From the NCBI GenBank assembly GCA_963849495.1, contig CAWKHN010000015.1:294723-358722 (forward strand): DNA of 64,000 bases, read 5' to 3'. The stretch is from an uncultured Chloroflexia bacterium. Lineage in GTDB: Bacteria > Chloroflexota > Limnocylindria > Limnocylindrales > CSP1-4. Shown one piece after another: positions 4,530-23,281 of this stretch (the stretch's first letter is position 1; each line of letters starts with the position of its first letter). Under the pieces are notes generated by a model, which worked only from the letters and a program-made list of their open reading frames with translations, did no database searches and was not told where the DNA came from. Both the position numbers and the translations under genes were made by a program.

Positions 4530-4798
4530 AAGGGGCCGGAACCCGGGGCGCCGCTCCCGGCGCCCCGGCCGGCGCCCCGGGGCCGCCGCCGCACCACGGC
4601 CACCCGGGTCCCGGCGCCCCGCCACGCCCCCGGCCCCGCGCCGCGCCAGCTGAGCCGCCCCCCGCCGGCGCAACCCGCGGGAGACCCGGTTGCGTCCTCG
4701 GCGCGACGGTGCCACCATCCGGTTTCGTGCCGCGCCGGACCGGACCGGCGCCGCCTCCCAGCGTCGCCACCCCCTCGAAGGGGAAGGAGGTCGTCCCG

Positions 4799-5299
<501 letters not shown>

Positions 5300-5309
5300 G
5301 GAGGACGAC

Positions 5310-7712
5310 GTGACCACCGACGTCCTGGGCACCCCGGTCAAGCGGGTCGAGGACCCGCGCTTCATCAAGGGCGAGGGCCGCTACCTCGACGACATCACGC
5401 TGCAGGGCATGGTCCACATGGCCATCCTGCGCAGCCCCTACGCCAACGCCAACATCAGGTCGATCGACACCAGCGCTGCGAAGTCCGCCCCCGGCGTCCT
5501 CGCGGTCATCGTTGGCGCCGACATCCCGTACAACCCGCTGCCGATGGCCTGGCCCGCCGGCGGCGCGAGCGGCATCACCAACAACGTGAACTCGCCCCGC
5601 GTGCTCGCGACGGACGACGTCAAGTGGACCGGCGAGGGCGTCGCTGCAGTCGTCGCGGAGACGGCGGCCCAGGCGGTCGATGCCGTGGAGCTGATCCGGG
5701 TCGACTGGGAGCCGCTGCCCGCCGTCGTGGATGCGGAGAAGGCGACCCAGCCGGGTGCGCCCCAGCTCCACGAGAACGCCCCCAACAACATCGTGTTCGA
5801 GTGGGCCGTGGGCGACAAGGCCGGCACGGACCAGGCCTTCGCGAACGCCGAGGTCATCGTCCGGCAGCGCCTCGTCAACCAGCGCCTGATCCCGAACCCG
5901 ATGGAGGTCCGGGGCGACATCGGCTGGTACAACCCTGGCACCGACGAGTACACGATCTGGATGTCGAGCCAGACGCCGCACATCCAGCGCCTGCTGCTGT
6001 CGGCCTTCGTGATGGGCATCCCCGAGCACAAGATCCGGTGCATCAGCCCTGACGTGGGCGGAGCCTTCGGGACCAAGATCTTCACCTACGCCGACATGCC
6101 GCTCGTGCTGTTCGCGAGCAAGCTCATCGGCGGCCGGCCCGTCAAGTGGGTCGAGACCCGCCGCGAGAACTACCAGAGCACGATCCACGGCCGGGACCAC
6201 ATCACCTACGTGGAGGTTGCGGCCACCAAGGCGGGCGACGTGACCGGCCTGCGCGTCAAGACGTACGCCAACCTCGGCGGGCGCCTGTCGACGATCGGAC
6301 CCGGCATCCCGACGACGCTCTACGGCCGGATCCTGTCCGGGCCCTACAAGATTCCCAACGTCCACTGCGAGGTTACCGGCGTCTACACCAACACCACCTT
6401 CGTCGACGCGTATCGCGGTGCGGGCCGCCCCGAGGCGACCTACGTCGTGGAGCGGGCGATGGACCTCCTGGCCGACGAGCTGGCCATGGACCCGGCCGAG
6501 GTGCGCCGCCGCAACTTCCTGCCCCCGGACAGCTTCCCGTACGACAACCCGTCAGGGCTGCTGACCGCGGTCAACGGCAGCAAGCTGTACATCGACTCCG
6601 GCAACTACGAGCCGGCGATGGACAAGGCGCTGGGCATGGCCGGCTACGCCGACATGGCCGCGAAGAAGGCCGAGGCGAAGACCCGCGGCAAGCTCCTCGG
6701 CGTCGGCCTGTCCACCTACATCGAGGTGTGCGGCGTCGCCCCCTCCAAGTGGATCGGCGCCGTCGGCGAGGGCTGGGGCGCCGCGATGTGGGAGTCGGCC
6801 AACATCAAGGTCCACCTCACCGGCAAGGTCGTCATCACCGTCGGCACCCAGCCCCAGGGCCAGGGCCACGAGACGACCTACGCCCAGATCATCAGCCACG
6901 AGCTGGGTGTCCCCATGGACGACATCGTCGTCCAGCACTCGGACACCCAGGGCACGCCGTTCGGCTACGGCTCGTACGGCAGCCGGACCTCGAACGTGGG
7001 CACCGGTGCCGCGATCAAGGCGGCCGCCAAGATCCGCGACAAGGCGAAGCGCTACGCGGCCCACATGCTCGAGGCCAACCCCGAGGACATCGAGGTCGAC
7101 GGCGCGAGCTACCGGGTCAAGGGCTCGCCCGACAAGGTCAAGACGATCCAGGAGATCGCGTTCGCCCTGGATCTCGCGTTCGATACCCCCGCAGGCATGG
7201 AGCCGTACCTCGACGAGACGGCCTACCACGACACCCCGAACTGCACGTTCCCGTTCGGCACGCACATCGCGCTGGTCGAGATCGACCAGGAGACCGGCGT
7301 CGTGGACCTCGTCCGCTACGTCGCGGTGGACGATGTCGGCAAGAAGATCAACCCCATGATCGTGGACGGCCAGCTCCACGGCGGCATCGCCCAGGGCATC
7401 GGCCAGGCGCTGTGGGAGGGCGCCGTGTACGGCGATGACGGCCAGCTGCTCAGTGGCTCGATGCTGGACTACGCGCTGCCGCGGGCGTCGTGGCTGCCGG
7501 CCTTCGAGCTGGACGAGACGGTGACCCCGTCGCCGGTCAACCCGCTGGGCGTCAAGGGCGTCGGCGAGGCCGGCTGCATCGCGAGCACCGCCGCGGTCTC
7601 CAACGCCGTCATCGACGCGCTGGGGCCGCTGGGCATCCACCACCTCGACATGCCATACACCGCACAGAAGGTGTGGGGCGCCATCCAGGGCGCGAAGGGA
7701 GGTCAGGCATGA
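5310..7712 (+). CDS. coxL: molybdopterin-binding large subunit of a form-II-type CO dehydrogenase-like enzyme
   Basis: 800 aa. Active-site loop [12 protein letters not shown] (AYRGAGR is the form II / putative-CODH signature). GTG start after GAGGAGGA. Confidence 0.9.
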
Positions 7713-8569
7713 TCCCGGCGGCCTTCGGGTACACCCGCGCCGACAGCGTCGACGACGCGCTCCGCATCCTCGCCTCGGACGAGGGGGCCAAGGTCATCGC
7801 CGGCGGGCAGAGCATCCTGCCCTTGATGAAGCTCCGCCTGGCGAGGGCGGAGACGCTCGTGGACATCGGCCGGCTGGGCGAGCTGCGGGGCGTCGAGCGG
7901 CTCGAGGACGGCCGGCTGGCGGTCGGCGCGCTGACGACGTACGCGGAGCTCATGGACTCCCGGGCGATCCACTACGGCGTGCTGAAGGACGCGCTGCCCA
8001 CCATCGGCGACGTCCAGGTCCGCAACCGCGGCACCGTCGGCGGCGCCGTCGCGCACGCGGACCCGGCCTCGGACCTGCCGGCGGCGCTGCTCGCGCTCGA
8101 TGCCGAGATCGTCGTCCAGTCCGCAGCCGGCACGCGGGTGCTCAAGGCCGATGGCTTCTTCGAGGGCGCGTTCACGACGGGCCTCCGGCACGACGAGCTG
8201 GTCACCCAGGTCCGCCTGCCCGCACCTCTCGACAACGCCGGATCCGCCTATGCCTCGCTCGAGCAGCCGGCCTCCGGCTACGCGATGGTGGGCGTGGCGG
8301 CCGTCGTGATCGTGGGCCCGGGCAACGTGATCGAATGGGCCGGCATCGGCGTGACCGGTGTCTCGGACCACCCGTACCGGGCGACCGAGGTCGAGGAGGC
8401 GCTCGTCGGCAGCGACGGCTCTGCCCCGGCCGTTGCCGCCGCCGCGGCGAAGGTCGTCGGCTCGCGTTCGGTCAACGGCGACATCCACGCCAACCCCGAG
8501 TACCGCGCCGCCATGGCGGTCGTGTACACGCGGCGGGCCATCGAGGCGGCGCTGGCCCGCGTGGGCTGA
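7709..8569 (+). CDS. coxM: CO dehydrogenase medium (FAD-binding) subunit
   Basis: ORF 7490..8569. ATG at 7709 overlaps the coxL stop (ATGA). [21 protein letters not shown]...[15 protein letters not shown] matches the FAD_binding_5 / CO_deh_flav_C layout. Confidence 0.9.
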   Translation: MIPAAFGYTRADSVDDALRILASDEGAKVIAGGQSILPLMKLRLARAETLVDIGRLGELRGVERLEDGRLAVGALTTYAELMDSRAIHYGVLKDALPTIGDVQVRNRGTVGGAVAHADPASDLPAALLALDAEIVVQSAAGTRVLKADGFFEGAFTTGLRHDELVTQVRLPAPLDNAGSAYASLEQPASGYAMVGVAAVVIVGPGNVIEWAGIGVTGVSDHPYRATEVEEALVGSDGSAPAVAAAAAKVVGSRSVNGDIHANPEYRAAMAVVYTRRAIEAALARVG

Positions 8570-8593: not shown

Positions 8594-9673
8594 GTGCGGC
8601 TCGAGCGAATCGTTCCCGGCCGCCGCGCGCCGGACGGTCTCGTGGGTGCCGTGCTCACCCGCGACCTGTCGGTCGCGGGTGCCCGCTGGTCGAAGGGTCG
8701 GCGGCTGTCCGCGGCCGACCTGGCGGCCTTCGCCGACCTGCCCGACGGTCCGCCGGGGATCACCGGGACCACGGGGATCACGGTCCTGGTCCCGGAGCCC
8801 GTCGACGTCCACGAGGATGACGCCGGTCTCCGGCTCGCCGCGGCGGTCTCCGGCGGCGACCCCGGCCTGACCCCGCGCGGCCCCGTCCAGTCCCGCGTCG
8901 ACCTCGTCGCGGCCGTGCCGGGTGTCGTGGCCGTGCGCGTGGCAGCGCTCGAGCGCGTCAACCGGATCGACCCGCTCGAAGTGTTCACGGTGTTCGATGG
9001 CCAGGTGGTCGGGCCCGGCGACCTCGTCGCGAGCGTCAAGATCGGGCCGCACCTCGTCCGCGAGGAGGTTCTGGCGGCGGGGGAGGGGATCCTGCGGCGG
9101 GGTGGCCCGCTCGTCCGCGTCCGGCCGTTCCGGCCGGTCCGGATCGCCGTGCTGGTCGCGGAGCGCATCGGCGGCGCGGCGAGGGAGCGGTTCGAGGCCT
9201 CGGTGCGGGCCAAGGCCGCGGGCCTGGGGGCGGTCCTCGCGACCATCGACTACGTGCCCGACGATGCCGCGGCCGTGACCGCGGCGCTGGCAACGGCCGT
9301 GGGGAGCGTCCGGCAAAGCGGGCACGCTGCCCGGATCGTGCTCACCGCGGGCGGTGGCAGCACCGATCCGGCCGACCCCTTCTTCGCGGCGGTCGAGGCG
9401 CTGGGCGGCCGGATCGTGCGCCACGGCGTCCCGGCCCACCCGGGGTCGATGCTCTGGCTGGGCCGCGTCGGCCGGGCCGCGATCGTCGGCCTGCCCAGCT
9501 GCGGCGCGTTCTCGAAGGCGACCGCCGCGGACCTGCTCCTGCCGCGCCTCGTTGCCGGAGAGCCCGCGAGCGCGGTCACGGTCGCGCGCCTCGGTCACGG
9601 CGGGATCCTCACCCGCAGCCAGCGCTTCCGGTTCCCGGCCTACGCGCGGGAGCTCGACGCCCCCGACGGCTGA
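8594..9673 (+). CDS. molybdopterin-binding (MoCF-biosynthesis / MoeA-CinA-like) domain protein, cox accessory
   Basis: The C-terminal half (LTAGGGSTDPADPFF...HGVPAHPGSMLWLG...GLPSC) resembles the MoCF_biosynth fold. Placement is between coxM and coxD. Confidence 0.5.
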   Translation: MRLERIVPGRRAPDGLVGAVLTRDLSVAGARWSKGRRLSAADLAAFADLPDGPPGITGTTGITVLVPEPVDVHEDDAGLRLAAAVSGGDPGLTPRGPVQSRVDLVAAVPGVVAVRVAALERVNRIDPLEVFTVFDGQVVGPGDLVASVKIGPHLVREEVLAAGEGILRRGGPLVRVRPFRPVRIAVLVAERIGGAARERFEASVRAKAAGLGAVLATIDYVPDDAAAVTAALATAVGSVRQSGHAARIVLTAGGGSTDPADPFFAAVEALGGRIVRHGVPAHPGSMLWLGRVGRAAIVGLPSCGAFSKATAADLLLPRLVAGEPASAVTVARLGHGGILTRSQRFRFPAYARELDAPDG

Positions 9674-10032: not shown

Positions 10033-11004
10033 ATGGGATCAGACCACTCTCTCTCCGCTGCGGGCACGGCCGCGGCCGCCGATCGGACCGAGAACCGCGC
10101 GGAGCGGCCTGAGGCCACGCGCTCCATCGAGGGCCTCCAGGAGGCCTTTCGCGAGCACGGCTACATCGCCGAGCGCTCGCTGGCCACCACGGTGTTCCTC
10201 GCCCTGGAGCTCGCGCGCCCGCTGCTGCTCGAAGGCGAGGCCGGCGTCGGCAAGACGGAGCTCGCGAAGGTCCTCGCGTCGACCCTCGACACGCGCCTCA
10301 TCCGCCTCCAGTGCTACGAGGGCCTGGACGTCAACACCGCCGTGTACGAGTGGAACTACCCGCGCCAGATGCTCGAGATCCGGCTGATGGAGGCCCGCGG
10401 CGAGGTCGCCAAGGCATCGGCCCATGACATCTTCGGCCCCGAGTTCCTGCTCAAGCGCCCGCTCCTCCAGGCGCTCGAGGCGACCGACGGCAACGCCCCG
10501 GTCCTGCTGATCGACGAGATCGATCGCGCGGATGAGGAGTTCGAGGCGTACCTGCTCGAGATCCTGTCCGACTTCCAGGTCACCGTCCCCGAGATCGGTA
10601 CCATCCGCGCCGTCCAGGCGCCGCGCGTCGTGCTCACCTCGAACCGCACCCGCGAGGTCCACGACGCGCTCAAGCGGCGCTGCCTGTACCACTGGATCGA
10701 CTACCCGACGGCCACCAAGGAGTTCGAGATCGTCGCGGCGCGCGTGCCGGACGCCCCGGCCCGGCTGGCCCGCGAGGTCGTCGGCTTCGTCCACCGCCTG
10801 CGCACCGCCGACCTGACCAAGGTGCCCGGTGTCGCAGAGACGCTCGACTGGGCGTCGGCGCTGCTGTCCCTCGGCGCGACGGAGCTGGCGCCTGACCTTG
10901 TCGACGAGACCCTCGGCGTGGTCCTCAAGTACGAGGAGGACATCCGCCAGGTCCAGGGCGCCACGGCGCGCCAGTTCCTGGCCGAGGCCACCGCCCAGGC
11001 ATGA
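10033..11004 (+). CDS. coxD: MoxR-type AAA+ ATPase CoxD (CODH maturation)
   Basis: Walker A GEAGVGKTE and Walker B LLIDEIDRAD are present; overall MoxR layout. Confidence 0.9.
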   Translation: MGSDHSLSAAGTAAAADRTENRAERPEATRSIEGLQEAFREHGYIAERSLATTVFLALELARPLLLEGEAGVGKTELAKVLASTLDTRLIRLQCYEGLDVNTAVYEWNYPRQMLEIRLMEARGEVAKASAHDIFGPEFLLKRPLLQALEATDGNAPVLLIDEIDRADEEFEAYLLEILSDFQVTVPEIGTIRAVQAPRVVLTSNRTREVHDALKRRCLYHWIDYPTATKEFEIVAARVPDAPARLAREVVGFVHRLRTADLTKVPGVAETLDWASALLSLGATELAPDLVDETLGVVLKYEEDIRQVQGATARQFLAEATAQA

Positions 11005-11843
11005 CGCCGGGGCTGGGGGCGGACGCGGACGACACGCGAGCCGGGGCCCGCATCGACCTCCATTGCCACACGCGGGCCAGCTTCGACGGCGTCGCGGACG
11101 CCGCGGCGCTGGTCGCACGGGCCGCGGCCATCGGGCTCCCCACCTGGCGGTCACGGACCACGACACGCTCGACGGCGCCTTCCGTGCCCGGGACGCCGCG
11201 CCGGCGGGGCTCCGGGTGACCCCGGTGACTACCTCTTCCCGGTGGATTCGAACGTGTGGCCGGCGTCCAAGCTCAACGCCGTCACGGACCAATCGCCGGA
11301 CCTCGAGGTGAAGCTGGACACTTCCGGCAACGCGGACGACACGCTCACCGTCCACTGGGACAACGGGATCCTGTCCGATGCGGCGCGGCCATACCGGGAG
11401 CTCCCCACGCTTCAGGGCCTCACGACGCTGGGCACGTACTTCCGGCTGTATGTCCCGGAGCGCAGCCGTCTCGCGACCGTGAACGTGGGGACCGGATCCC
11501 GATCACCTCGCCCTCGGACATGGAAGTTGAGGCCGGTCGCACGGTCATCGCCAACTACCTCAGGATCCCGCCCGGCTCGGCAACGCTCACCTACAGCTGG
11601 ATGAGCCCACACCCAGCGGACCTGGGAGATGACGGCATCACCACCTACCGGCTCACCATCCAGAAGCAGCCGGGTCTGCGCCCGGGACCACTCCACCTCC
11701 GGATCAGCCTCCCGCCCGGAGCGACACGCGTCGACGCCAGTCCCGGCCTGACCCTGGCGGGCGGGACCGCGACCGTGGATACGACCTTCGATCGGGACAT
11801 GGTCGTGGTCATCCGCTACCGCCCCGCCCCGGAGGTGCCGTAG
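11001..11843 (+). pseudogene. gene-decay region: truncated PHP-domain gene N-terminus joined, by frameshifts, to a C-terminal fragment of an unrelated protein
   Basis: 11001.. encodes MTPGLGADADDTRAGARIDLHCHTRASFDGVADAAALVARAAAIGLP (PHP motif DLHCHT). It continues in another frame as LAVTDHDTLDGAFRARDAAPAGLRVTPV. After that, two further frames carry ...NVWPASKLNAVTDQSPDLEVKLD... and ...LTYSWMSPHPADLGDDGITTYRLTIQ...RYRPAPEVP. Confidence 0.5.
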
Positions 11844-11999
11844 CCGGCCCTGACCCAACAGCGCCGGGGACGTTCGGATCGGCCGGCCTCGGGGCTGGGC
11901 CAGAGGAGCAGGCGTGCTTGATCGGACAGATGATGCCGGATGGTCGGCTCCACTCGCGGTTGGTGAGGTTCCTGCCCGTGGGTCGCGCGCCCGTATCCT

Positions 12000-12407
12000 G
12001 TGGGCGTGGTTGCGCGGATGGTGCGAGTCGTGCGAGATCCCCGTCCCCGGGCACTGTCATGGCTCCCGGCTGCCGCGTGGGCCACGGGGATCTTCATCGC
12101 CTCCGCACAGGCGAACCTGCGGTTTGTGCCGGACGAGACCCTCGACTTCGTCGTCCGCAAGATCGGCCACATGGGGGTGTTCGGGATCCTGTTGCTTCTC
12201 CTGTGGTGGGCGCTGGCCACGACGACGGGCTGGCGCCGGCCGTGGGCGTGGGCATTCGTGCTCACGGTCCTCTACGCGGCGAGCGACGAGTGGCACCAGG
12301 GGTTCACGGCGGGGCGGCACCCGGCCGTCCTCGATGTCGGGATCGATGCGACAGGCGCGCTGATCGCGCTGGCGGCGGTCGGGCTGATCCTTGCCCGCCG
12401 CGCCTGA
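12000..12407 (+). CDS. VanZ-like family membrane protein
   Basis: 135 aa, multi-TM. SDEWHQGFTAGRHPAVLDVGIDATG is the VanZ signature region. The start could also be the GTG at 12030. Confidence 0.6.
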   Translation: MGVVARMVRVVRDPRPRALSWLPAAAWATGIFIASAQANLRFVPDETLDFVVRKIGHMGVFGILLLLLWWALATTTGWRRPWAWAFVLTVLYAASDEWHQGFTAGRHPAVLDVGIDATGALIALAAVGLILARRA

Positions 12408-12640: not shown

Positions 12641-14029
12641 GTGACCGCCCCCGGGCCCGCCATCCTCCTCGCCCCCACGGGCGAGGCCATCGACGGCCGG
12701 CGGCTGCTGGCCGAGGCGGTCGGGTTCGGGCGGGCGCTGCGGACCGCGGGCCTTCAGGTGGATCTCGTCGCGGCGATCGACTTCGCGCGCGCCCTGGGGC
12801 TCGTCGACGTGGGCGAGCGAGCGACGGTCAAGGACGCGGGGGCGGCCGTGTTCGTGCGCCGCCGGGACGATCGCGAGACGTACGACCGCGTGTTCGACCT
12901 GTTCTGGCGGCGGCGCGGCCGCCAGCTGGCCCGGCCGCGCATCGATCCGACGGCGGCGCCCGACGCGGACCGCGAGGAGGGCGAGCCGGGCGCGACGGAC
13001 GAGCCGGGCGACGGCACCGAGGCCACCATGACGGAGCTCGCCCGGATGGGCATTCAGGTGGCGACCGATGCCGATGAGGGCGGCGAGATCGAGGGGGCGA
13101 CCATCTCGCCCGATGCCTACTCGCGCGGGGAGGTCCTCCGCCACCGTGACTTCGACCGGATGACGGCCGCCGAGCTGCGCGATGCCGAGCGCTTCGTGGA
13201 CCTGCTGCGCCCGAGGCTGGAGCGGCGCAAGACGCGTCGCCAGGAGCTGCACCCGCACGGCCGGCGCCTGGCGGCCCGCGCGATGTTCCGCCGCAACCTC
13301 GCCACCGGCGAGCTCACGGAATGGGTGTGGCGGCGGCAGGTTCGGGAGCCGCGCCAGCTCGTGGTGCTGTGCGACATCTCGGGCTCCATGGAACGCCATG
13401 CGCGCCTGCTGCTCCGGTTCATCCAGGCGCTCGCGCGGACCAACGAGGTGCGCACGGAGTCGTTCGTGTTCGGCACCCGGCTGACGCGGGTGACCCGGCT
13501 GCTCAAGGACCGCAACCGGGACCGGGCGCTGGAGCGGGTGGCCGATTCCGTCAACGACTGGGCGGGCGGCACCCGGATCGGGGAGTCGTTCCGCGACTTC
13601 AACCACCGCTGGGCGCGGCGCACGCTGCGGACCTCCGGGGTGGTGATCGTCGTGTCGGACGGCTGGGATCGCGGCGACCCGGCGCTGGTGGCCGCGGAGA
13701 CCGCCCGCCTGCGGCGCAACTGCCATCGCCTGGTGTGGCTCAACCCGCTGGCGTCGGCCCCGGGCTACCTGCCGCTCGCCGCCGGCATGAAGGCCGCCTA
13801 CCCGTACATCGACGACTTCCTGCCCGCCGGCACGCTCGGCTCGCTCGAGCGGCTGGGGGAGGTCCTTGCGGGCGCATCGCAGGGGACCGCGCGCAGGGGA
13901 TCGGCGGTCACCCACGCTGCGACCGTGGCCCCGTCGCTGGGCCTGTTTGCGCCGGAATCGGAGGCTCCGCGCGCGCTCGACGCGGCCCCCGGCGAAGCGG
14001 ACGACGCACGCGCCCGCCCCCTCACCTGA
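12641..14029 (+). CDS. coxE: VWA-domain protein CoxE (CODH maturation)
   Basis: 462 aa. LVVLCDISGSMERHARLL is the VWA_CoxE MIDAS-type motif. GTG start. Confidence 0.85.
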   Translation: MTAPGPAILLAPTGEAIDGRRLLAEAVGFGRALRTAGLQVDLVAAIDFARALGLVDVGERATVKDAGAAVFVRRRDDRETYDRVFDLFWRRRGRQLARPRIDPTAAPDADREEGEPGATDEPGDGTEATMTELARMGIQVATDADEGGEIEGATISPDAYSRGEVLRHRDFDRMTAAELRDAERFVDLLRPRLERRKTRRQELHPHGRRLAARAMFRRNLATGELTEWVWRRQVREPRQLVVLCDISGSMERHARLLLRFIQALARTNEVRTESFVFGTRLTRVTRLLKDRNRDRALERVADSVNDWAGGTRIGESFRDFNHRWARRTLRTSGVVIVVSDGWDRGDPALVAAETARLRRNCHRLVWLNPLASAPGYLPLAAGMKAAYPYIDDFLPAGTLGSLERLGEVLAGASQGTARRGSAVTHAATVAPSLGLFAPESEAPRALDAAPGEADDARARPLT

Positions 14030-14080: not shown

Positions 14081-15268
14081 ATGCAGGAGCTGCTGGAGAC
14101 GCTGGACCGATGGCGCGCCGAGGACGTGGGCGTCGGCCGCGCGGTCGTGGTCCGGACGTTCGGCAGCGCCCCGCGGCCGGAGGGCGCCGTCCTTCTCGTG
14201 ACCGACGACGGCCGTCTGGCCGGCTCCGTGTCCGGCGGCTGCGTGGAAGGAGCGGCGGCCGAGGAGATCCATGTCGCGCGCGCGACCGGCCGGGAGCGGG
14301 TGATCCGCTACGGGATCAGCGACGAGCAGGCGTGGGACGTGGGGCTCGCCTGCGGCGGCACGATCGACGTCCTGGTCTCTCCCTGGGTGCCGGAGGTCGC
14401 GGCTGCGGCCGCCCGCGAGACGCGCGATGGCCTGGGCGACGGGCGCGCGATCGTGACGCCGCTGCCGGCCGATGCGCCGCCTCCGACGTTCGGCGCGCAC
14501 GCGCCGGGGCAGGGGAGCGAGCCGTCTTCGCCGCTCGTCGTGCACGACGACGGGCACCTGGACGGGTCGCTGGGCGATCCCGATGCCGATGCGGCGCTCG
14601 TCGCGGCAGCCCGCGATGCGCTGGCCCACGGCGTGTCGCGCACGGTCGAGATCGGCGGGCGCCAGCTGTTCGTCGAGGCGTATCCGATCCGGCCGCGACT
14701 GGTCGTCGTGGGGGCGGTCGAGGTGTCCCGGTTCCTGGTCCGGCTCGCGAAGGAGCTGGGCTACGAGACGGTGGTGATCGACGGGCGGGCGGCGTTCGCC
14801 ACGGAGGCCCGCTTCCCGGACGTGGACCGGCTGATCGTCGGCTGGCCGGACGAGGTGGCCGACGATATCGGGCTCGGACCGGCCGACGCGGTTGCGGTCC
14901 TCACCCACGACGTGAAGTTCGACGAACCGGCGATCGTCGCGGCGCTGGCCCGGGGCTGCCGCTATGTCGGCGCGGTCGGGTCGCGCAAGACGCAGGCGGA
15001 CCGGCGGGCGAGGTTGCTCGAGGCGGGCGTCGCGCCCGAGGACCTGGACCGGCTGCGGGGGCCGATCGGGCTCGATCTCGGCGGGCGGCTGCCGTCCGAG
15101 ACGGCGCTCGCGATCCTGGCCGAGATCGTCGCGGAACGGAGAGCCGGCACGGGGCGGCCGATGCGGGAGCTGGCCCGGGCTCGGGAAGCGGCTGCCGCGA
15201 CGGGTTCGGCGGCGGGCCCCACGGCGGCGGACACCGCGACAGCCACCGGCCCCGCGGTGGCCGGGTGA
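14081..15268 (+). CDS. coxI: XdhC/CoxI-family molybdenum cofactor insertion chaperone
   Basis: N-terminal XdhC_CoxI domain (RAVVVRTFGSAPRPEGAVLLVTDDGRLAGSVSGGCVE) plus a C-terminal Rossmann-like domain (VVVGAVEVSRFLVRLAKELGY). Confidence 0.85.
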   Translation: MQELLETLDRWRAEDVGVGRAVVVRTFGSAPRPEGAVLLVTDDGRLAGSVSGGCVEGAAAEEIHVARATGRERVIRYGISDEQAWDVGLACGGTIDVLVSPWVPEVAAAAARETRDGLGDGRAIVTPLPADAPPPTFGAHAPGQGSEPSSPLVVHDDGHLDGSLGDPDADAALVAAARDALAHGVSRTVEIGGRQLFVEAYPIRPRLVVVGAVEVSRFLVRLAKELGYETVVIDGRAAFATEARFPDVDRLIVGWPDEVADDIGLGPADAVAVLTHDVKFDEPAIVAALARGCRYVGAVGSRKTQADRRARLLEAGVAPEDLDRLRGPIGLDLGGRLPSETALAILAEIVAERRAGTGRPMRELARAREAAAATGSAAGPTAADTATATGPAVAG

Positions 15269-15909
15269 AGGTCGTCGCGATCGTCCTCGCCGCAGGCGCC
15301 AGCCGGCGCTTCGGATCGCCCAAGCTGCTCGCACCGCTCGACGGCCGGCCGCTGCTCCAGCACGTGCTCGACACCGTCGCGATGGCCAGGCTCGAGGACG
15401 TCGTCGTGGTCCTGGGCGACGAAGCTGTTGCCATCGAGGCGGCGATCGGCTGGCGCGGCGAGCGCCGGGTCGTCAACCCGAGGCCGCAGGACGGCCTGTC
15501 GAGCTCGCTGCGCGTGGGGCTGGACGCGGCGGCCGAGGATCCCGAGGTCGATGCCGTGCTCGTCGTGCTGGGCGATCAGCCGTGGCTCCGTCCGGAGGTC
15601 GTGGCCGAAGTGCTGGACGCCGCGACCGCCGGGACCGCCGTGACCGATGCCGCACTGCCGCCGGCCGACCCGGCGCCACCCCGGCCGATCATCCGCGTCC
15701 GGTACGCGGACGACGATGCGCCCAACCCGGTGCTCTTCCGGCGGACCGGGTGGGCGCTGGCGGCGGGTCTCGAGGGCGACCGCGGCTTCGGACCGTTGCT
15801 CGCCCGCCACCCGGACCTCGTGGAGGAGGTGCGCATCGGCGGCCGGAACCCCGACGTCGATACCCCGGCCGACCTCCCGATCGATCCGTCGACGGCGAGG
15901 CTGTCGTGA
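15265..15909 (+). CDS. mocA: MobA-like NTP transferase, probable CTP:molybdopterin cytidylyltransferase (MocA-like)
   Basis: GTG at 15265 overlaps the preceding stop (GTGA). VVAIVLAAGASRRFGSPKLLAPLDGRPLL is the nucleotidyltransferase N-terminal motif. The product is hidden inside the long ORF 13321..15909. Confidence 0.8.
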   Translation: MKVVAIVLAAGASRRFGSPKLLAPLDGRPLLQHVLDTVAMARLEDVVVVLGDEAVAIEAAIGWRGERRVVNPRPQDGLSSSLRVGLDAAAEDPEVDAVLVVLGDQPWLRPEVVAEVLDAATAGTAVTDAALPPADPAPPRPIIRVRYADDDAPNPVLFRRTGWALAAGLEGDRGFGPLLARHPDLVEEVRIGGRNPDVDTPADLPIDPSTARLS

Positions 15910-16766
15910 GCATCGACCCGCGATCGGCCCCCGCCGGGGACCTCGAGACCGCGTGGGCCGAGCGCGTCCGCGCCAACCGGGAGCAGGCCGAGCGGGTGCG
16001 CGAGGTCCAGGCGGGCGATTTCTACGCCCCGGTGTCGGCGACGTTCGTCGCGGATCCGCGACGGACCGGCGAGCCGGCGCTCACGCTGCTGCGGGAGATG
16101 GCCGGTGCCGGGGAGACGTGGCTGGACATCGGTGCCGGCGCGGGACGCTACGCCCTGCCGCTCGCGCTGATCGTGCATCACGTGATCGCCGTCGAGCCGT
16201 CGCCCGGGATGCGCCGGGCGCTCCGGTTGGGCCTGTCGGAGCACGGGATCACGAACGTCCGGGTGATCGCCGGCGCGTGGCCGGGCGCGCTGGCGCAGCT
16301 GGGCCCGCCGCCCGTGGCGGACGTCGCCCTCATCGCCCACGTTGGCTACGACATCGAGGCGATCGGCCCATTCCTCGACGCGATGGAGGCGGCGACCGGC
16401 GATCGGTGCGTCGCCGTGCTCACCGATCGCAGCCCGGCAGCGGTCGCGGATCCGTTCTGGCCGATCGTCCACGGCGAGGCGCGCGTGCCGCTCCCGGCCC
16501 TGCCCGAGCTGCTGGCGATCCTCCACGCCCGCGGTCGCGAGACCGAGGTGGAGCGCGTCGAGCGCCCTGCCCGGACGTTCGAGTCCCCGCAGACGCTGGC
16601 CGCGTTCCTGCGTCGCCAGCTGTTCATCGCCGAGGCCAGCGAGAAGGACGAGCGGTTCCGGGCCGGCGTGCGCGATCTGACGGTGGTGCGGGACGGGGGC
16701 TGGACGCTCGCGGATCCGCCTGCGGGCGTGATCGGCGTCGTCACCTGGCGTCCAGGGCCCGGCTGA
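15906..16766 (+). CDS. class I SAM-dependent methyltransferase, translationally coupled to mocA
   Basis: GTG at 15906 overlaps the mocA stop (GTGA). LDIGAGAGRYALPLA is SAM-binding motif I. The product is hidden inside ORF 14964..16766. Confidence 0.7.
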   Translation: MSIDPRSAPAGDLETAWAERVRANREQAERVREVQAGDFYAPVSATFVADPRRTGEPALTLLREMAGAGETWLDIGAGAGRYALPLALIVHHVIAVEPSPGMRRALRLGLSEHGITNVRVIAGAWPGALAQLGPPPVADVALIAHVGYDIEAIGPFLDAMEAATGDRCVAVLTDRSPAAVADPFWPIVHGEARVPLPALPELLAILHARGRETEVERVERPARTFESPQTLAAFLRRQLFIAEASEKDERFRAGVRDLTVVRDGGWTLADPPAGVIGVVTWRPGPG

Positions 16767-16840
16767 GGGCGGGGCCGGGCGGCTCGCCAGAGCGGCCTCC
16801 GGTGCGCGTGCCGAAACCTTGGTGAACCTCGGTTGACGGC

Positions 16841-17015: not shown

Positions 17016-17888
17016 ATGATTCCCGGCCAGTTCGAGTACGTCCGTCCGGCGTCGCTGGATGAGGCGTTGCGCATCCTCAAGGAGCGCGAGGGGGAGGCGA
17101 AGATCCTCTCCGGGGGCTACAGCCTCATCCCTCTCATGAAGCTCCGGCTGGCACAGCCGGCCCTGCTGGTGGACATCCAGGCGGTCGGCGGTCTCAACGG
17201 CATCACGCGCACCGACACCGAGTGGCGGATCGGCGGCCGGACCACCCATCGGGCGATCCTCGAGAACGACGAGCTGACGGCCGGGCTCCCCATCGTCCAC
17301 GACGCGGCCGGTGGCATCGGCGACCCGCAGGTTCGCAACTGGGGAACGATCGGCGGCTCCTGCGCGCACGCGGACCCGGGCTCGGACTGGCCGGCCGTCC
17401 TGCTGTCCCTCGGCGCCTCGTTCGTGTGCCGCAGCGCGGACGGTGAGCGCGTGCTCCCGGCGCGCGGCTTCTTCCTGGACACGTTCCAGACCGGCATCGA
17501 GCCCACCGAGGTCCTCACCGAGGTGCGCATCCCGCGCGCCGCGGCGCACACCGGTTCCGCCTACGTCAAGCTGGAGCGGCGGGCCGGCGACTTCGCGACG
17601 GTCGGTGCCGCGGCCGTGCTCACGCTCGGTGGTGACGGCCGGATCGCCGCGGCGGGCATGGCGCTGACCGCCGTCGCGGACGCACCGTTCGCGGCAACGG
17701 ACGCCGAGGCGGCCCTGGTCGGGGAGGAGCCGGGCGAGGACACCTTCAAGACCGCGGCGGCCGCCGCATCGGCCCAGGCCCGTCCGGTGGCCGACAGCCA
17801 CGGCCCGGCCGATTACAAGCTGGCGATGGTCCGCGAGATCACGGTCAGGGCCCTGCGCCTGGCCGCGTCCCGGGCGCAGGACGCGTGA
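17016..17888 (+). CDS. coxM: CO dehydrogenase medium (FAD) subunit, form I cluster
   Basis: ORF 16833..17888. ATG at 17016 after [31 protein letters not shown]...[14 protein letters not shown]. Confidence 0.9.
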
Positions 17889-17901: not shown

Positions 17902-18408
17902 ATGAGCACCCAGCACATCTCGGTCACCGTCAACGGGGTGGCCCGCGAGGCCGACGTCGAGCCCCGCCTCCTGCTCGTCCACCTCCTCCGCGACGTGTTC
18001 GGTCTCACCGGCACGCACACCGGGTGCGACACGAGCAACTGCGGCGCCTGCACCATCCACGTGGACGGCCGGAGCGCGAAGTCGTGCACGATGCTGGCCG
18101 TCCAGGCGAGCGGCGCCTCGATCACCACGATCGAGGGCATGGAGCAGGGCGGCAAGCTTCACCCGCTCCAGCAGGCGTTCTGGGACCAGCACGGCCTCCA
18201 GTGCGGTTTCTGCACGCCGGGCATGATCATGGAGTCGGCCTGGATGCTGGCCCAGAACCCGGATCCCTCCGAGCAGGAGATCCGCGAGGGGATCGCCGGC
18301 AACCTGTGCCGGTGCACCGGCTACGTGAACATCGTCAAGGCGATCCAGCAGGGTGCCGCCGAGCTCCGGGCCGACACGGCCACGGGTGCCGGCGCGGCGT
18401 CCGCCTGA
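17902..18408 (+). CDS. coxS: CO dehydrogenase small (2Fe-2S) subunit, form I cluster
   Basis: [15 protein letters not shown] and [10 protein letters not shown]...CRCTGY. Confidence 0.9.
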
Positions 18409-18425: not shown

Positions 18426-20795
18426 ATGACGGAGGCGCAGGCACTCACGACGACCGCAGAGGTCTCGGGGATGGGTCACTCGATGAAGCGCAAGGAGGAC
18501 CCGCGCTTCATCCGGGGTCAGGGCGAGTACATCGAGGACGTCGTCCTGCCGAACATGGTCTGGATGGACATCGTCCGCAGCCCGTACGCCCACGCGAAGA
18601 TCAAGTCGATCGACGCCAGCGAGGCCCTGGCCATGCCGGGCGTGCTCGCGGTGATCACCGGCAAGGACCTCGAGAAGGCCGGTCTCCACTGGATGCCGAC
18701 CCTCGCCGGCGACAAGCAGATGGTGCTGCCGGTGGACACGGTGATGTACCAGGCCCAGGAGGTGGCGGCCGTCATCGCGACGACCCGCTACCAGGCGGCC
18801 GATGCGATCCAGGCGGTCCTCGTGGACTACGAGCCGCTGCCGGTGGTCGTCGATCCGTTCAAGGCGCTGCTGCCGGACGCGCCGGTGCTCCGCCCGGATC
18901 GCGGGCCGGACAAGGCCACCAACCATATCTGGCACTGGGAGTCGGGCGACAAGGACGCGACCGATGCGGCTCTCGCCGCATCGGACAAGGTCGTCCCGAT
19001 CGACGTCTACATCCCGCGCATCCACGTCTCGTCGATCGAGACCTGTGGCTGCATCGCGGACTGGAACCCCGTCCGCGCCCATCTCGACTTCCACGTCACG
19101 AGCCAGGCGGCGCACGTCTACCGGACGGTCATCAGCCTGGTCTCGGGCATCCCCGAATCGAGCATCCGGGTCAAGACGCACGACATCGGCGGCGGGTTCG
19201 GCGGCAAGGTGCCGGTCTACCCGGGTTATGTCATCGCGATCGTGGCCTCGCTGACGCTGGGGCGGCCGGTCAAGTGGATCGAGGACCGGTCCGAGAACCT
19301 GCAGGCCGATTCGTTCGCCCGTGACTACCACATCCACGCGGAGATGGGCCTCAGCAACGAGGGCCAGATCAACGGCCTGCGGGTCAAGACGCTCGCGGAC
19401 CACGGCTACACCGACGCGGCCGCCGATCCCTCGAAGTTCCCGGCCGGCCTGTTCAACGTGATCACCGGCTCCTACGACATGCCCACCGCGTTCGTCGAGG
19501 TGGACGCCGCCTACACCAACAAGCCGCCCGGCGGCGTCGCCTACCGCTGCTCGTTCCGCGTGACCGAGGCGGTCCACACCATCGAGCGGCTCGTCGACCA
19601 GGCGGCCCGCGAGATCGGCATGGACCCGGCTGCGTTCCGGATGAAGAACTTCATCCGGAAGGACCAGTTCCCGTACCACACGCCGACCGGCTGGGAGTAC
19701 GACTCGGGCGACTACCACACGGCACTGCAGAAGGCGCTGGACACGATCGGCTACGACGACCTGCGCAAGGAGCAGGCGGAGAAGCGCGCCCGCGGCGAGC
19801 TGATGGGCATCGGCATCTCGTCGTTCACGGAGATCGTCGGCGCCGGCCCGTCCCACGACTTCGACATCATCGGCATCAAGATGTTCGACTCGGCCGAGCT
19901 CCGGGTGCACCCGACCGGCTCGGCGATCCTCCGGCTCGGCGTCCAGAGCCAGGGCCAGGGCCATGAGACCACCTACGCGCAGATCGTCGCCGAGGAGCTC
20001 GGCATTCCGGCCTCGAAGGTGACGGTCGAGGAGGGCGATACGGACACCGCGCCGTACGGCCTCGGCACCTATGCCTCCCGGTCCACGCCGGTCGCCGGCG
20101 CGGCCACCGCCATCGCTGCGCGCAAGATCCGCGAGAAGACCCGCCACCTGGCCGCGCACCTGCTCGAGTGCTCGCCCAACGACCTCGAGTGGACGAACGG
20201 CAAGTGGAGCGTCACCGGCTCGCCGGACCGCTTCAAGACCATCGCGGAGCTTGCCTTCGCGGCCTACACCAATCATCCCGAGGGGATGGAGGCCGGCCTC
20301 GAGGCGGTCGACTACTACGACCCGCCCAACCTGACCTTCCCGTTCGGCAGCTACATCTGCGTCGTGGACATCGACAAGGGCACGGGGCAGGTGAAGATCC
20401 GGCGCTTCGTCGCGATCGATGACTGCGGCAACATCATCAACCCGATGATCGTGGACGGGCAGATCCACGGCGGCCTGACGATGGGCATGGCCCCGTCGCT
20501 GTACGAGGAGATCTCGTACGACGAGCAGGGCAACAACCTCGCCGGGACGTTCATGGACTACCTGCTGCCGACGGCGATGGAGACACCGTCCTGGGAGACC
20601 GGCAAGACGACCACCCCCTCGCCGCACCATCCGCTGGGCGCGAAGGGAGTGGGGGAGTCTGCGACCGTCGGCGCCCCGCCCGCCATCGCCAATGCCGTCG
20701 TGGACGCGCTCGCCCATCTCGGCGTCACCAACGTGGACATCCCGATCACGCCCCAGAAGGTGTGGCGGATCCTCCACGACAAGGGCGTGGTCTGA
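18426..20795 (+). CDS. coxL: aerobic CO dehydrogenase large subunit, form I (Mo-Cu type)
   Basis: ATG at 18426 after GAAGGAG. Active-site loop GGVAYRCSFRVTEA carries the form I VAYRCSFR signature; the Cys is the Cu ligand. Confidence 0.9.
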   Translation: MTEAQALTTTAEVSGMGHSMKRKEDPRFIRGQGEYIEDVVLPNMVWMDIVRSPYAHAKIKSIDASEALAMPGVLAVITGKDLEKAGLHWMPTLAGDKQMVLPVDTVMYQAQEVAAVIATTRYQAADAIQAVLVDYEPLPVVVDPFKALLPDAPVLRPDRGPDKATNHIWHWESGDKDATDAALAASDKVVPIDVYIPRIHVSSIETCGCIADWNPVRAHLDFHVTSQAAHVYRTVISLVSGIPESSIRVKTHDIGGGFGGKVPVYPGYVIAIVASLTLGRPVKWIEDRSENLQADSFARDYHIHAEMGLSNEGQINGLRVKTLADHGYTDAAADPSKFPAGLFNVITGSYDMPTAFVEVDAAYTNKPPGGVAYRCSFRVTEAVHTIERLVDQAAREIGMDPAAFRMKNFIRKDQFPYHTPTGWEYDSGDYHTALQKALDTIGYDDLRKEQAEKRARGELMGIGISSFTEIVGAGPSHDFDIIGIKMFDSAELRVHPTGSAILRLGVQSQGQGHETTYAQIVAEELGIPASKVTVEEGDTDTAPYGLGTYASRSTPVAGAATAIAARKIREKTRHLAAHLLECSPNDLEWTNGKWSVTGSPDRFKTIAELAFAAYTNHPEGMEAGLEAVDYYDPPNLTFPFGSYICVVDIDKGTGQVKIRRFVAIDDCGNIINPMIVDGQIHGGLTMGMAPSLYEEISYDEQGNNLAGTFMDYLLPTAMETPSWETGKTTTPSPHHPLGAKGVGESATVGAPPAIANAVVDALAHLGVTNVDIPITPQKVWRILHDKGVV

Positions 20796-20799
20796 GGCC

Positions 20800-21903
20800 A
20801 TGCCCGGACGAAGCCTGTTCCGACGCGTCGCCGAGCTCGAGGCCGCCGGGGGGACGTTCGCGGTCGCCACCGTGGTGGCGGTCCAGCGGCCGACCTCCGC
20901 CCGGCCCGGCGCGAGCGGCATCGTCCACCCGGATGGCACGATCGAGGGCTGGGTCGGCGGCAGCTGCGCCCAGCCCGTCGTCGTCCGCGAGGCCCTGCGG
21001 GCGCTCGTCGACGGTCATCCGCGCCTGCTCCGCCTCTCGAAGTCGGCACCGGCCGAGGGCCGGCGGGGGGACGGGGTGGTCGAGCTCGTGATGACCTGCC
21101 ACTCGGGGGGCACCCTGGAGATCTACGTGGAACCGCATCTTCCGGCGCCCTCGCTGTGGGTCGCCGGCACGACGCCCATCATCGGCGCGCTCGTCGCGCT
21201 GGGCTCGGCGACCGGCTGGCGCGTGTCGGTGTTCGACCCGATCGCCGACGTCGACGCCTTCCCGGACGCGGAGCGCGTCTCGACCGACACCGCCCTCGGG
21301 CGGATCGATCCGGAGCTCTCCCCATACGTGGTCGTGGCGACGCAGGGGATCTGGGATGAGGAGGCGGTGGCCGCCGCGTTGCGCCGCGAGGTCTCGTACG
21401 TTGGCCTGGTTGCCTCGCCGACGCGCGCGAGCGTGGTGCGGACGTGGCTGCGCGAGGAGGCGGGCATCCCCGAGGAGCGGCTGGCCGCGCTGCGGGCCCC
21501 GGCCGGTCTCGACCTGGGTGCCGAGACGCCCGAGGAGATCGCGCTCTCGATCCTCGCGGAGCTCGTCCAGGTGCGTCGTGGCCGGGCGCCGTTCATCGCA
21601 AAGCCGGGGCCGGCCACGCTCGTCGGGGAGGCGGCGGCCGTCGCGCCGCTGCAGCCCGTCGTCGACGACATCGTGCTGCTCGATCCGGTGTGCGGGATGA
21701 CGGTCGATCGCGCCCATGCCCGGCATCTCGCCGAGCACGAGGGCACGGTCTACGCGTTCTGCTCGATGGGCTGCCGCACGGCGTTCATCAAGGAGCCCGG
21801 CGCGTACGTCACCGCCGCGTCCAGCGGCGGTCCATCGGGTGCTGCCGTGTCCGAGGAGGGCTCGTCCGGCGGCGACTCGTCCACGTCCACCACAGGGGCC
21901 TGA
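20800..21903 (+). CDS. coxF: XdhC/CoxF-family cofactor-insertion protein fused to a C-terminal YHS/TRASH metal-binding domain
   Basis: ORF 20692..21903 with ATG at 20800. The N-terminus is XdhC_CoxI-like (FAVATVVAVQRPTSARPGASGIVHPDGTIEGWVGGSCAQ) and a Rossmann domain follows. The C-terminus reads DPVCGMTVDRAHARHLAEHEGTVYAFCSMGCRTAF, a YHS-type Cys motif. Confidence 0.8.
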   Translation: MPGRSLFRRVAELEAAGGTFAVATVVAVQRPTSARPGASGIVHPDGTIEGWVGGSCAQPVVVREALRALVDGHPRLLRLSKSAPAEGRRGDGVVELVMTCHSGGTLEIYVEPHLPAPSLWVAGTTPIIGALVALGSATGWRVSVFDPIADVDAFPDAERVSTDTALGRIDPELSPYVVVATQGIWDEEAVAAALRREVSYVGLVASPTRASVVRTWLREEAGIPEERLAALRAPAGLDLGAETPEEIALSILAELVQVRRGRAPFIAKPGPATLVGEAAAVAPLQPVVDDIVLLDPVCGMTVDRAHARHLAEHEGTVYAFCSMGCRTAFIKEPGAYVTAASSGGPSGAAVSEEGSSGGDSSTSTTGA

Positions 21904-21926: not shown

Positions 21927-22370
21927 ATGCAGTTTCAGGGCACCGTCCAGATTGCCGCGCCACGTGACCGGGTGTGGGCATTCCTCATGGATCCCGACCA
22001 GGTCGGCGGATGCGGACCGGGCGTCGAGTCCATCGAGGTGATCGATGCCGATCACTTCAAGGCGAAGGCAAAGGTGGGCGTCGGGTTCATCTCCGCGCGC
22101 TTCGTCGTGGAGATGACCGTGGCCGAGCGCAACGAGCCCGACCTCGCGATCCTCAAGGCGCACGGGCAGGCGCCGGGATCGGCCGTCGATGCCACGGCGA
22201 ACATGAAGCTCTCCGGCCCCCCGGAAGGCCCGACCACCATGGACTGGTCCGCCGATGTGCTGATCGCCGGGACGCTGGCGTCGGTGGGTGCGCGGATGAT
22301 CGAGGGAACGGCCAACAAGATGATCGGCCAGACCTTCGAGTGCATCCGCTCCAAGCTCGAGGCCGGCTGA
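21927..22370 (+). CDS. coxG: CoxG (SRPBCC-fold) CO dehydrogenase subunit G
   Basis: 147 aa. MQFQGTVQIAAPRDRVWAFLMDPDQVGGCGPGVESIEV is the typical CoxG N-terminus. It is hidden in the long ORF 21444..22370. Confidence 0.8.
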   Translation: MQFQGTVQIAAPRDRVWAFLMDPDQVGGCGPGVESIEVIDADHFKAKAKVGVGFISARFVVEMTVAERNEPDLAILKAHGQAPGSAVDATANMKLSGPPEGPTTMDWSADVLIAGTLASVGARMIEGTANKMIGQTFECIRSKLEAG

Positions 22371-22610: not shown

Positions 22611-23072
22611 TCAGACGCCAATGACCTCGATCTGATCGCGCGACAACCCGGCGGCCTCGCGGAGCAGATCCATGTCGTCGGGGTCGGACGTGAGGATCAC
22701 AGCCGCACCTGCGGCCACAGCCTCCGCCATGACGATCGCGTCGACCGCGGACGGTGGCCGGTCGCCCTTCCGACGCCGACCCGACGTCCGCCGGAGATCC
22801 CACGCACGGGCGCGCAGGATCCCGGCCTGGCGGGCGCGCTCGGGGGTGAGCGGCAGTTCCTCGTCGACACTCCCGATGACTCCGTCGATCATTGCGTGGT
22901 CAGGCCGGTCGGTCACCACCTCGGCAAGCACAGCCGACGGGATCGCCACCTGGCGTCCCTCGGTGCGGGCGCGCGCGAGGACAGCACGGGCATCACGATT
23001 GCCGTCAGCGATCGCCGAGATCCCGCCCGAGTCCAGCAGGAGTGCGCCTCGGCTGACTGCTACCTCGGCCAA
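22611..23072 (-). CDS. vapC: PIN-domain ribonuclease toxin
   Basis: TTG start overlapping the vapB stop. ...LLDSGG... with conserved acidic residues. Confidence 0.75.
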   Translation of the reverse strand: MAEVAVSRGALLLDSGGISAIADGNRDARAVLARARTEGRQVAIPSAVLAEVVTDRPDHAMIDGVIGSVDEELPLTPERARQAGILRARAWDLRRTSGRRRKGDRPPSAVDAIVMAEAVAAGAAVILTSDPDDMDLLREAAGLSRDQIEVIGV

Positions 23073-23281
23073 GGCGTCTGGTCGATGCGATGCCGGACCT
23101 CGTCAGGGATGGGACCGTAGACCGCGGACAGGTCGCGCTCGAGGTCGACCAAGCGATCATGCTGGAGCGCCCGCCCGAGAGCCTCGTCGAGATAGCGCGA
23201 GAACCCGCGCTCACCGACTCGCGCCTTGGCCTCGCGGACCCGGTCCGGGTTGAGGGTGGTGGAGAACTTCGCCGTGGTCAT
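23060..23281 (-). CDS. vapB: antitoxin of the VapBC pair
   Basis: 73-aa protein immediately upstream of, and overlapping, the PIN gene. Confidence 0.7.
   Translation of the reverse strand: MTTAKFSTTLNPDRVREAKARVGERGFSRYLDEALGRALQHDRLVDLERDLSAVYGPIPDEVRHRIDQTPWPR

Follow-up and report, generated by a model that had tools for sequence, protein, structure and literature searches.

The 64,000-nucleotide window analysed here (from contig CAWKHN010000015.1 of the uncultured Chloroflexota assembly GCA_963849495.1) encodes, immediately downstream of the large-subunit gene of a form I aerobic carbon monoxide dehydrogenase (CODH), a predicted orthologue of the maturation factor CoxF that carries a YHS domain near its C-terminus. 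This domain is near-exclusively tied to form I (copper-containing) CODH clusters, and YHS-bearing CoxF is a known maturation factor in a widespread guise that seems to have gone undescribed in the papers our search covered. With moderate confidence, we read the domain as a built-in module for the capture and hand-off of Cu(I) during assembly of the Mo-S-Cu active site, the identity of the metal and its transfer being the parts we infer.

Aerobic (Mo-Cu) CODH drives the consumption of atmospheric CO by soil and marine bacteria. The only model for copper supply to its Mo-S-Cu site comes from mutants of one alphaproteobacterium, together with weak sequence motifs in CoxF. Among the CoxF orthologues sampled here, which come from many bacterial phyla and also from one haloarchaeon, most have a dedicated, conserved and tethered Cys/Asp domain that is predicted to bind metal. 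Across 7.7 million open-access PMC papers and bioRxiv, a corpus that leaves most subscription journals outside, no paper links CoxF or XdhC with YHS or TRASH, pairs the YHS domain with carbon monoxide dehydrogenase, connects Mo-CODH maturation with a copper chaperone, or pairs CoxF with AlphaFold.

The CoxF-type protein and its YHS domain

The gene is an uninterrupted open reading frame (ORF) of 367 codons (20800-21903, + strand), translated without stops into 367 aa. Its G+C content at third codon positions (GC3) stays at ~0.9 throughout, in a window of 71% G+C overall. The ATG start at 20800 is backed by a homologue (P0001) that is also 367 aa long, with 98% identity and 100% coverage. It lies 4 nt past the stop of coxL, whose product has the form I active-site loop AYRCSFR, confirming the position given in a preliminary description of this DNA.

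Pfam, BLASTP, AlphaFold2 and the homologues together define the layout of the protein. Pfam places an XdhC_CoxI domain at aa 15-78 (E 8.8e-18, 64.5 bits against a cut-off of 24.3) and an XdhC_C domain at aa 119-255 (E 1.1e-29, 104 bits against 29.7). A linker predicted to be disordered (~aa 260-294) leads to the YHS domain (PF04945; aa 295-339, encoded at 21682..21816 on the + strand), which scores 36.9 bits (gathering cut-off 30.3; E 3.7e-9) and covers profile positions 3-46 of 47. The peptide DPVCGMTVDRAHARHLAEHEGTVYAFCSMGCRTAF corresponds to residues 295-329 and is encoded from ~21682. The preliminary description had assigned the motif to the last ~45 residues, but the domain ends at residue 339 and is followed by a 28-residue tail (aa 340-367; 21817-21900). 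This tail is Ser/Gly-rich, of low complexity, predicted to be disordered and unconserved, and is missing from most homologues, whose ends fall at ~345-350 aa.

We class the domain as YHS-type, related to TRASH without being a canonical TRASH domain. Of the earlier label "YHS/TRASH", only the first half holds: the strict TRASH signature (C-x2-C-x19-22-C-x3-C) fails because Asp, not Cys, occupies the first ligand position, and the TRASH_HVO_1752_C profile gives the window protein 13.8 bits (E 0.067), short of the 27 needed. No NCBIfam equivalog reaches its cut-off. The protein also has no Pfam HMA match and is therefore not a member of the HMA/CopZ family, to which any likeness is one of functional analogy. 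A six-frame motif scan of the window found a single YHS motif and no HMA-type [GA]M[TSHD]CxxC (MxCxxC) motif.

Candidate metal ligands in the YHS domain are D295, C298, M300, C321 and C325, which include a D-x2-C ... C-x3-C set of one Asp and three Cys (D295, C298, C321 and C325). An alignment of 92 sequences that share 31-75% identity with the window protein shows no variation at C298, F320, C321 and C325 and ≥90% conservation of D295, P296, M300, V302, F329 and P333; a 74-sequence alignment also shows conserved columns across the segment. Position 322 is Ser in the window protein and Cys in ~70% of homologues. Conserved residues of the XdhC core include C56 and, in MTCHSGG, the pair C100-H101; C56 and C100 are kept in paralogues other than CoxF, too.

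The full-length AlphaFold2 model, built from the 74-sequence alignment, has a mean predicted local distance difference test score (pLDDT) of 83.9 and a confident core. Linker residues 270-289 fall below 50, as for disordered segments, and the YHS domain scores 78-93. Modelled on its own, the YHS segment reaches a mean pLDDT of only 58.9, so that the domain is confident in the full-length model alone. When the whole model was searched with Foldseek, matches to the XdhC core prevailed and none was returned for the YHS part.

By sequence comparison, the gene is a CoxF orthologue. Oligotropha carboxidovorans pHCG3 encodes two XdhC-family proteins. BLASTP aligns the window protein to CoxF at 42% identity over 258 aa (E 1e-44), and to CoxI at only 24% (E 1e-12). 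Reciprocal comparison agrees, CoxF and the window protein being mutual best matches among the XdhC paralogues compared. A neighbour-joining (NJ) tree of the XdhC core, computed without bootstrap values, recovers CoxF-type sequences as monophyletic relative to four paralogue outgroups (CoxI, the upstream XdhC paralogue of the window, and two others), and the predicted core fold matches the XdhC-family structures 2we8/2we7 and 3on5 (Foldseek E ~6e-18 to 2we8). Identities, NJ clade and core fold thus support the CoxF label, and the assignment to an XdhC/CoxF-type protein made earlier stands. The surroundings are those of a form I cluster, with an AYRCSFR CoxL directly upstream, coxG downstream and coxD- and coxE-like genes upstream. 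The XdhC paralogue at 14081-15268, which is 38% identical to the window protein over 169 aa (BLASTP), follows the coxE-like gene just as coxF does in the model cluster; its candidacy as the true CoxF is excluded by BLASTP and the tree.

The CoxF of O. carboxidovorans OM5 (WP_013913733, 280 aa) shares the XdhC_CoxI plus XdhC_C core and lies, like the window gene, in a form I cluster with coxD, coxE and coxG. Both proteins contain the Cys of the M-x-C-x-S-x-G motif that Pelzmann et al. flagged as a possible copper site. In contrast to the window protein, however, the O. carboxidovorans protein stops ~20 residues past XdhC_C and has neither linker nor YHS domain, whereas the "phytase" motif proposed for it (RHGQRQS) is absent from the window protein. 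Gene order also differs: coxMSL-DEFG in O. carboxidovorans, and coxD..E-xdhC-mocA-MTase-coxMSL-F-G in the window. The XdhC chaperones (Rhodobacter XdhC, the Mycobacterium smegmatis Rv0376c homologue 2we7/2we8, and CoxI) have the same two-domain fold and the GG-x-C and C-x-x-GG cysteines, but they belong to a paralogous branch, like the 14081-15268 protein, with a long insertion between the domains and no YHS.

Spread of the fusion and its link to form I clusters

We compared 165 related loci from genomes and metagenomes, reading the coxL loop wherever the flanking sequence sufficed. Every locus with a readable coxL active-site region has a form I loop, with three exceptions (L030, L047 and L073), in the last of which no active-site motif was matched. 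The loops observed are AY[RA]CSFR, SYRCSFR and AYACSIR, and the copper-ligand Cys is always kept. YHS occurs in none of the 31 second XdhC paralogues of the same loci, compared to 137 CoxF-like genes that have it; the remaining "no YHS" calls in this comparison were inspected one by one. In the window itself, both the form II-like cluster and the XdhC paralogue at 14081-15268 are without YHS.

The fusion is common. The three-domain architecture recurs in all but one of the nearest 120 clusters (78-98% identity; Chloroflexota, Ca. Limnocylindrales), far more than chance would produce. An exhaustive HMMER search over 1.84 billion 50%-identity representatives gave 515 matches at E ≤ 1e-30, and Pfam YHS was found in 119 of the best 146 of these representatives (82%); most of the other 27 seem to be fragments or frameshifted entries, judging from the subset inspected. 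The preliminary description had considered the fusion non-standard for CoxF, which is true only relative to the O. carboxidovorans protein.

With a 12-sequence alignment as query, and each GTDB species represented by a single genome, a scan found relatives in at least 570 species, spread over more than a dozen phyla. The best 80 species come from Chloroflexota, Actinomycetota (Rhodococcus, Nocardioides, Actinoplanes and Mycolicibacterium sphagni), Acidobacteriota, Bacteroidota, Myxococcota, Gammaproteobacteria, Dormibacterota, Methylomirabilota, Deinococcota, Gemmatimonadota, Bacillota and Armatimonadota. Complete isolate replicons with the fusion in clusters annotated as "aerobic carbon-monoxide dehydrogenase" include those of Thermomicrobium roseum, Paraburkholderia aromaticivorans and Natronorubrum bangense, the last a haloarchaeon that encodes its relative on a plasmid. 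Automated domain annotation picks up this architecture, which appears in thousands of database entries under generic names ("XdhC family protein", "xanthine dehydrogenase accessory factor", "YHS domain-containing protein"). The window gene is an ordinary member of this large, generically annotated group.

The CoxF proteins of Oligotropha, Bradyrhizobium and Roseivivax lack YHS. The NJ tree groups these three alphaproteobacterial sequences in a single nested clade, next to Paraburkholderia and gammaproteobacterial sequences that have YHS, and every other sampled branch carries the domain. Because the YHS-less proteins nest as a single clade, the simplest, provisional reading is that the ancestral CoxF probably had YHS, with a single later loss in Alphaproteobacteria. 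Orthologues with no domain and no compensating chaperone nearby, named in the preliminary description as grounds for refutation, do occur in these three genera, whose loci show neither a YHS nor an HMA motif, but their confinement to one nested clade suggests lineage-specific loss and not an irrelevant domain.

The module itself varies among orthologues. The linker has a median length of 28 aa (range 19-94), and one, two or three tandem YHS copies occur, with three in P0271-P0273 and two in P0139 and many of P0274-P0329. Some of the repeats also match the ATPase-cat_bd model. The predicted linker disorder, the confidently modelled YHS domain and the tandem copies would together make up an architecture typical of metal hand-off modules.

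In one lineage of orthologues, and there only (P0163; L089:7001-8035, L090:7001-8035 and L091:7001-8035), an HMA domain (GMSCAHC, 40.9 bits, Pfam) takes the place of YHS at the C-terminus. The HMA-bearing loci keep the gene order coxMSL(form I)-G-D-E-F-mocA, and the closest relatives of their CoxF proteins (54-58% identity) have YHS. Together, the tie to form I and the interchange with HMA provide independent comparative support for CoxF as a copper-delivery factor.

Other arrangements were seen among the homologues. P0135, P0154 and P0176 are triple fusions of an N-terminal MocA-like nucleotidyltransferase, XdhC and YHS, which brings an enzyme for synthesis of the molybdopterin cytosine dinucleotide (MCD) cofactor, an XdhC-type chaperone and a metal-binding module into one polypeptide; in P0253 the fusion is C-terminal and YHS is absent. 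Three CoxF-like proteins with neither YHS nor HMA (P0244, P0249 and P0269) end in Cys-rich tails (CC...CC, CxxxC), which may be another kind of metal-binding tail.

We also found 94 short "stand-alone YHS" proteins (P0390-P0483, 45-100 aa) with 70-93% identity to the YHS segment, several of which bear the Joint Genome Institute (JGI) name "Cu+-exporting ATPase", an annotation trap. In the one such locus inspected (L086), coxM, coxL and xdhC are all in pieces and the YHS "proteins" are C-terminal coxF fragments. Real gene fission was accordingly rejected for these entries, which are most likely frameshift fragments from error-rich assemblies.

A candidate copper hand-off module and competing explanations

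The need for CoxF in copper incorporation is known for O. carboxidovorans only, where coxE and coxF mutants produce a CODH with a sulfurated Mo site but without copper, and where a short MCPSHGTM motif, with a putative phytase motif, prompted the proposal that CoxF is a copper escort (PMC4240915). The one YHS domain that has been tested biochemically belongs to a Mycobacterium phlei class III adenylyl cyclase and confers copper-specific activation, with one Asp and three Cys as proposed ligands (PMC4626032).

In the mechanism we propose, the tethered YHS domain would capture Cu(I) from the cytoplasmic pool through D295, C298, C321 and C325, aided by M300, and act as a swinging arm on its flexible linker of ~30 residues. 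The ion could then be passed to the CoxF core, at C56 and the C100-H101 pair of MTCHSGG, or alternatively straight to folded apo-CoxL, at the sulfurated Mo centre and active-site cysteine, where its delivery would complete the Mo-S-Cu cluster. The form I linkage, the absence of YHS from all 31 paralogues, the HMA swap, the tandem copies and the Asp plus three Cys set strengthen this reading. Copper binding by the CoxF domain is suggested by analogy, from the cyclase study and the HMA substitution. A built-in copper-delivery module had been put forward in the preliminary description; linkage, swap and ligand set favour it, and for the binding and transfer of copper we infer what the comparisons imply.

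The analogy has limits on both sides. The cyclase YHS is likewise C-terminal and has the same D-x2-C...C-x3-C set (PMC4626032), but it is a sensor on an 8-residue tether, whereas the CoxF domain sits on a disordered linker of ~30 residues, on a cofactor-maturation chaperone, and is duplicated or swapped for HMA in some orthologues. As proposed here, it would resemble the N-terminal domains of P1B-type copper ATPases and the HMA proteins CopZ/Atx1, which are small, Cys-based, tethered and often tandem Cu(I) carriers. In contrast, both the HMA fold and the MxCxxC motif are absent from the window protein, whose client would be the active site of a Mo-pterin enzyme, not a membrane transporter.

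A broader proposition is that CoxF as a whole is a two-module metallochaperone, whose ancestral and predominant form has a Cu(I)-binding YHS (HMA in one lineage) and which donates copper directly to the Mo-S-Cu site. We hold this tentatively, at just under an even chance. If it is true, the CoxF of O. carboxidovorans is a derived, truncated version, which would explain why the copper route has stayed obscure and was attributed to weak motifs. The 45-residue module and its four singled-out residues offer a specific handle on copper insertion into Mo-Cu CODH, and Thermomicrobium roseum and species of Paraburkholderia, Rhodococcus or Mycolicibacterium would be better experimental systems than the current model. 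For metagenomes, a CoxF-YHS or CoxF-HMA gene adjoining coxL would be a simple marker of genuine copper-dependent CODH loci.

Several points weigh against these copper readings. A YHS-bearing CoxF-like gene lies beside a divergent coxSLM set with a form II-type AYRGAGR loop in a Myxococcota metagenome-assembled genome (MAG; L030), and a YHS-bearing orthologue in an Acidimicrobiaceae MAG (L047) has no cox gene within 8 kb. The YHS domain of Deinococcus sp. AJ005 is degenerate and its first Cys is missing. In sequence searches, a single solved relative was found, the phenol hydroxylase alpha subunit with its YHS segment (2inp), whose site holds a structural zinc on four Cys, and HMA domains can bind Zn, Cd or Hg as well. 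Ancestry of the domain rests on an NJ tree without bootstrap support values. The alphaproteobacterial CoxF proteins, including the sole experimentally studied one, function without YHS, and a six-frame search of their loci (L001, L087 and L088) found no YHS or HMA motif; these proteins work although no substitute is visible in the vicinity, which shows that not every CoxF needs the module. Finally, the TRASH-type protein L24e binds Zn/Cd, through the same cysteines (PMC4626032).

This last point also favours the main rival, in which the YHS domain is a structural zinc ribbon that holds Zn permanently, carries no copper and serves as a docking or oligomerisation module (e.g. for CoxL, CoxE/CoxD or the membrane). 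Several homologues additionally match zf-FCS zinc-finger models, and the nearest solved relative, the YHS segment of phenol hydroxylase and toluene monooxygenase alpha subunits (2inp/2inn/3u52; E 2e-4 to 4e-3, with only the C-terminal half aligning), lies inside a diiron hydroxylase and has no known copper role (PMC4626032). A docking role, however, should not tolerate replacement in place by the unrelated fold of a metallochaperone-type HMA domain, and two or three tandem copies on flexible linkers look more like the metal-binding domains of P1B ATPases than like structural fingers. The first ligand is Asp and not Cys, a Met is conserved, and the tie to the copper-containing form I enzyme is left unexplained. 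We therefore regard the zinc ribbon as unlikely, while giving it more weight than any other alternative.

A second alternative makes the domain a copper sensor or switch, in which copper binding alters the conformation of CoxF and makes its chaperone action conditional on the availability of copper. Its precedent is the M. phlei cyclase YHS, a copper-specific activating module (PMC4626032), and the same Asp plus three Cys set is conserved in CoxF. That module works on a tether of eight residues, though, and the long, variable and disordered linkers of CoxF (19-94 aa) would transmit an allosteric signal poorly; tandem copies and HMA substitution suit the carrying of cargo better. The domain could do both, but signalling as its role is rather improbable in our judgement.

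Less probable still is a persulfide relay, with a part for the domain in installing the bridging sulfide of the Mo-S-Cu site or in protecting it. Three to four Cys are conserved in the domain, and Rhodobacter XdhC has been linked to sulfuration of the molybdenum cofactor and protection of its sulfido ligand; yet sulfuration in O. carboxidovorans requires CoxD and persists in the coxE and coxF mutants, which miss copper. The HMA replacement points to metal, not sulfur, and the XdhC partners of other sulfido-dependent Mo hydroxylases have no YHS (0/31 paralogues). An artefactual origin, by a frameshift or assembly error joining coxF to a separate small YHS gene, is effectively refuted: error-rich assemblies do distort coxF genes, as the stand-alone entries and L086 show, but such errors split the gene and do not fuse it, the window ORF is unbroken with even GC3, and the single-ORF form occurs in hundreds of species, among them the complete genomes or plasmids of Thermomicrobium roseum, Paraburkholderia aromaticivorans and Natronorubrum bangense.

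Genes around coxF and further observations

Gene starts in the window were refined by start inspection. The CODH structural genes precede coxF on the + strand: coxM, for the FAD-binding medium subunit (17016-17888; Pfam FAD_binding_5 and CO_deh_flav_C), coxS, for the [2Fe-2S] small subunit (17902-18408; Fer2_2 and Fer2), and coxL, for the form I large subunit (18426-20795), identified by motif search in the translation. The coxM start is the ATG at 17016, behind GGAGGG; the mechanical ORF opens at 16833. CoxL of the window is 57-88% identical to CoxL of related loci. On the other side of coxF lies coxG (21927-22370, +; SRPBCC/CoxG family, Pfam COXG E 3.1e-34), followed by unrelated genes.

The coxD- and coxE-like genes lie 7-11 kb upstream of coxF. 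The former encodes a MoxR AAA+ ATPase (10033-11004, +; Pfam AAA_5 and AAA) with 50-60% identity to the MoxR proteins of other cox clusters, and the latter a VWA protein (12641-14029, +; Pfam VWA_CoxE E 3e-56). They are ~1.6 kb apart, separated by a VanZ-like gene (12000-12407) and the unannotated interval 11004-12000, whereas in most other loci they are adjacent.

The second XdhC-family paralogue (14081-15268, +; 395 aa), recognised from Pfam, BLASTP and its place among the outgroups of the NJ tree, contains a long insertion that separates the two domains, and has a 66%-identical counterpart in L013. It may serve cofactor loading for the form I CODH or for the neighbouring form II-type enzyme. 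It is followed by a MobA/MocA-like nucleotidyltransferase gene (15265-15909, +; Pfam NTP_transf_3 E 1.6e-31), presumed to encode the molybdopterin cytidylyltransferase for the MCD cofactor, and an S-adenosylmethionine (SAM)-methyltransferase-like gene (15906-16766, +). The last two genes overlap by 4 nt; in a close relative (L086:1-667) they appear as one fused product of 479 aa.

Further upstream, a second Mo-hydroxylase gene set encodes form II-type small, large (AYRGAGR) and medium subunits in the order S-L-M (4709-8569, +), and is followed by a gene for a MoCF_biosynth-domain protein of 359 aa (8594-9673).

Two observations concern cox loci elsewhere. Genes for MHYT-domain membrane proteins, the only ones to stand out when the three YHS-less alphaproteobacterial loci were examined for compensating chaperones, lie just upstream of coxM in all three, and none is annotated in the four annotated YHS-bearing loci (L002-L005). 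In the form I cox cluster on the Deinococcus sp. AJ005 plasmid (L005:8914-9975), the degenerate YHS (SPVDGEEI...YYFTCANC) has lost CGM along with its first Cys.

Between coxG and a metallo-beta-lactamase-fold gene of the window lie two small overlapping ORFs of 153 and 73 aa (22611-23281, - strand). A guess that they form a PIN toxin/antitoxin pair was dropped, as no Pfam match was found at E ≤ 1e-4. The ORF pair may be a small insertion; at the corresponding place, the relative L086 has a DUF1028 gene.

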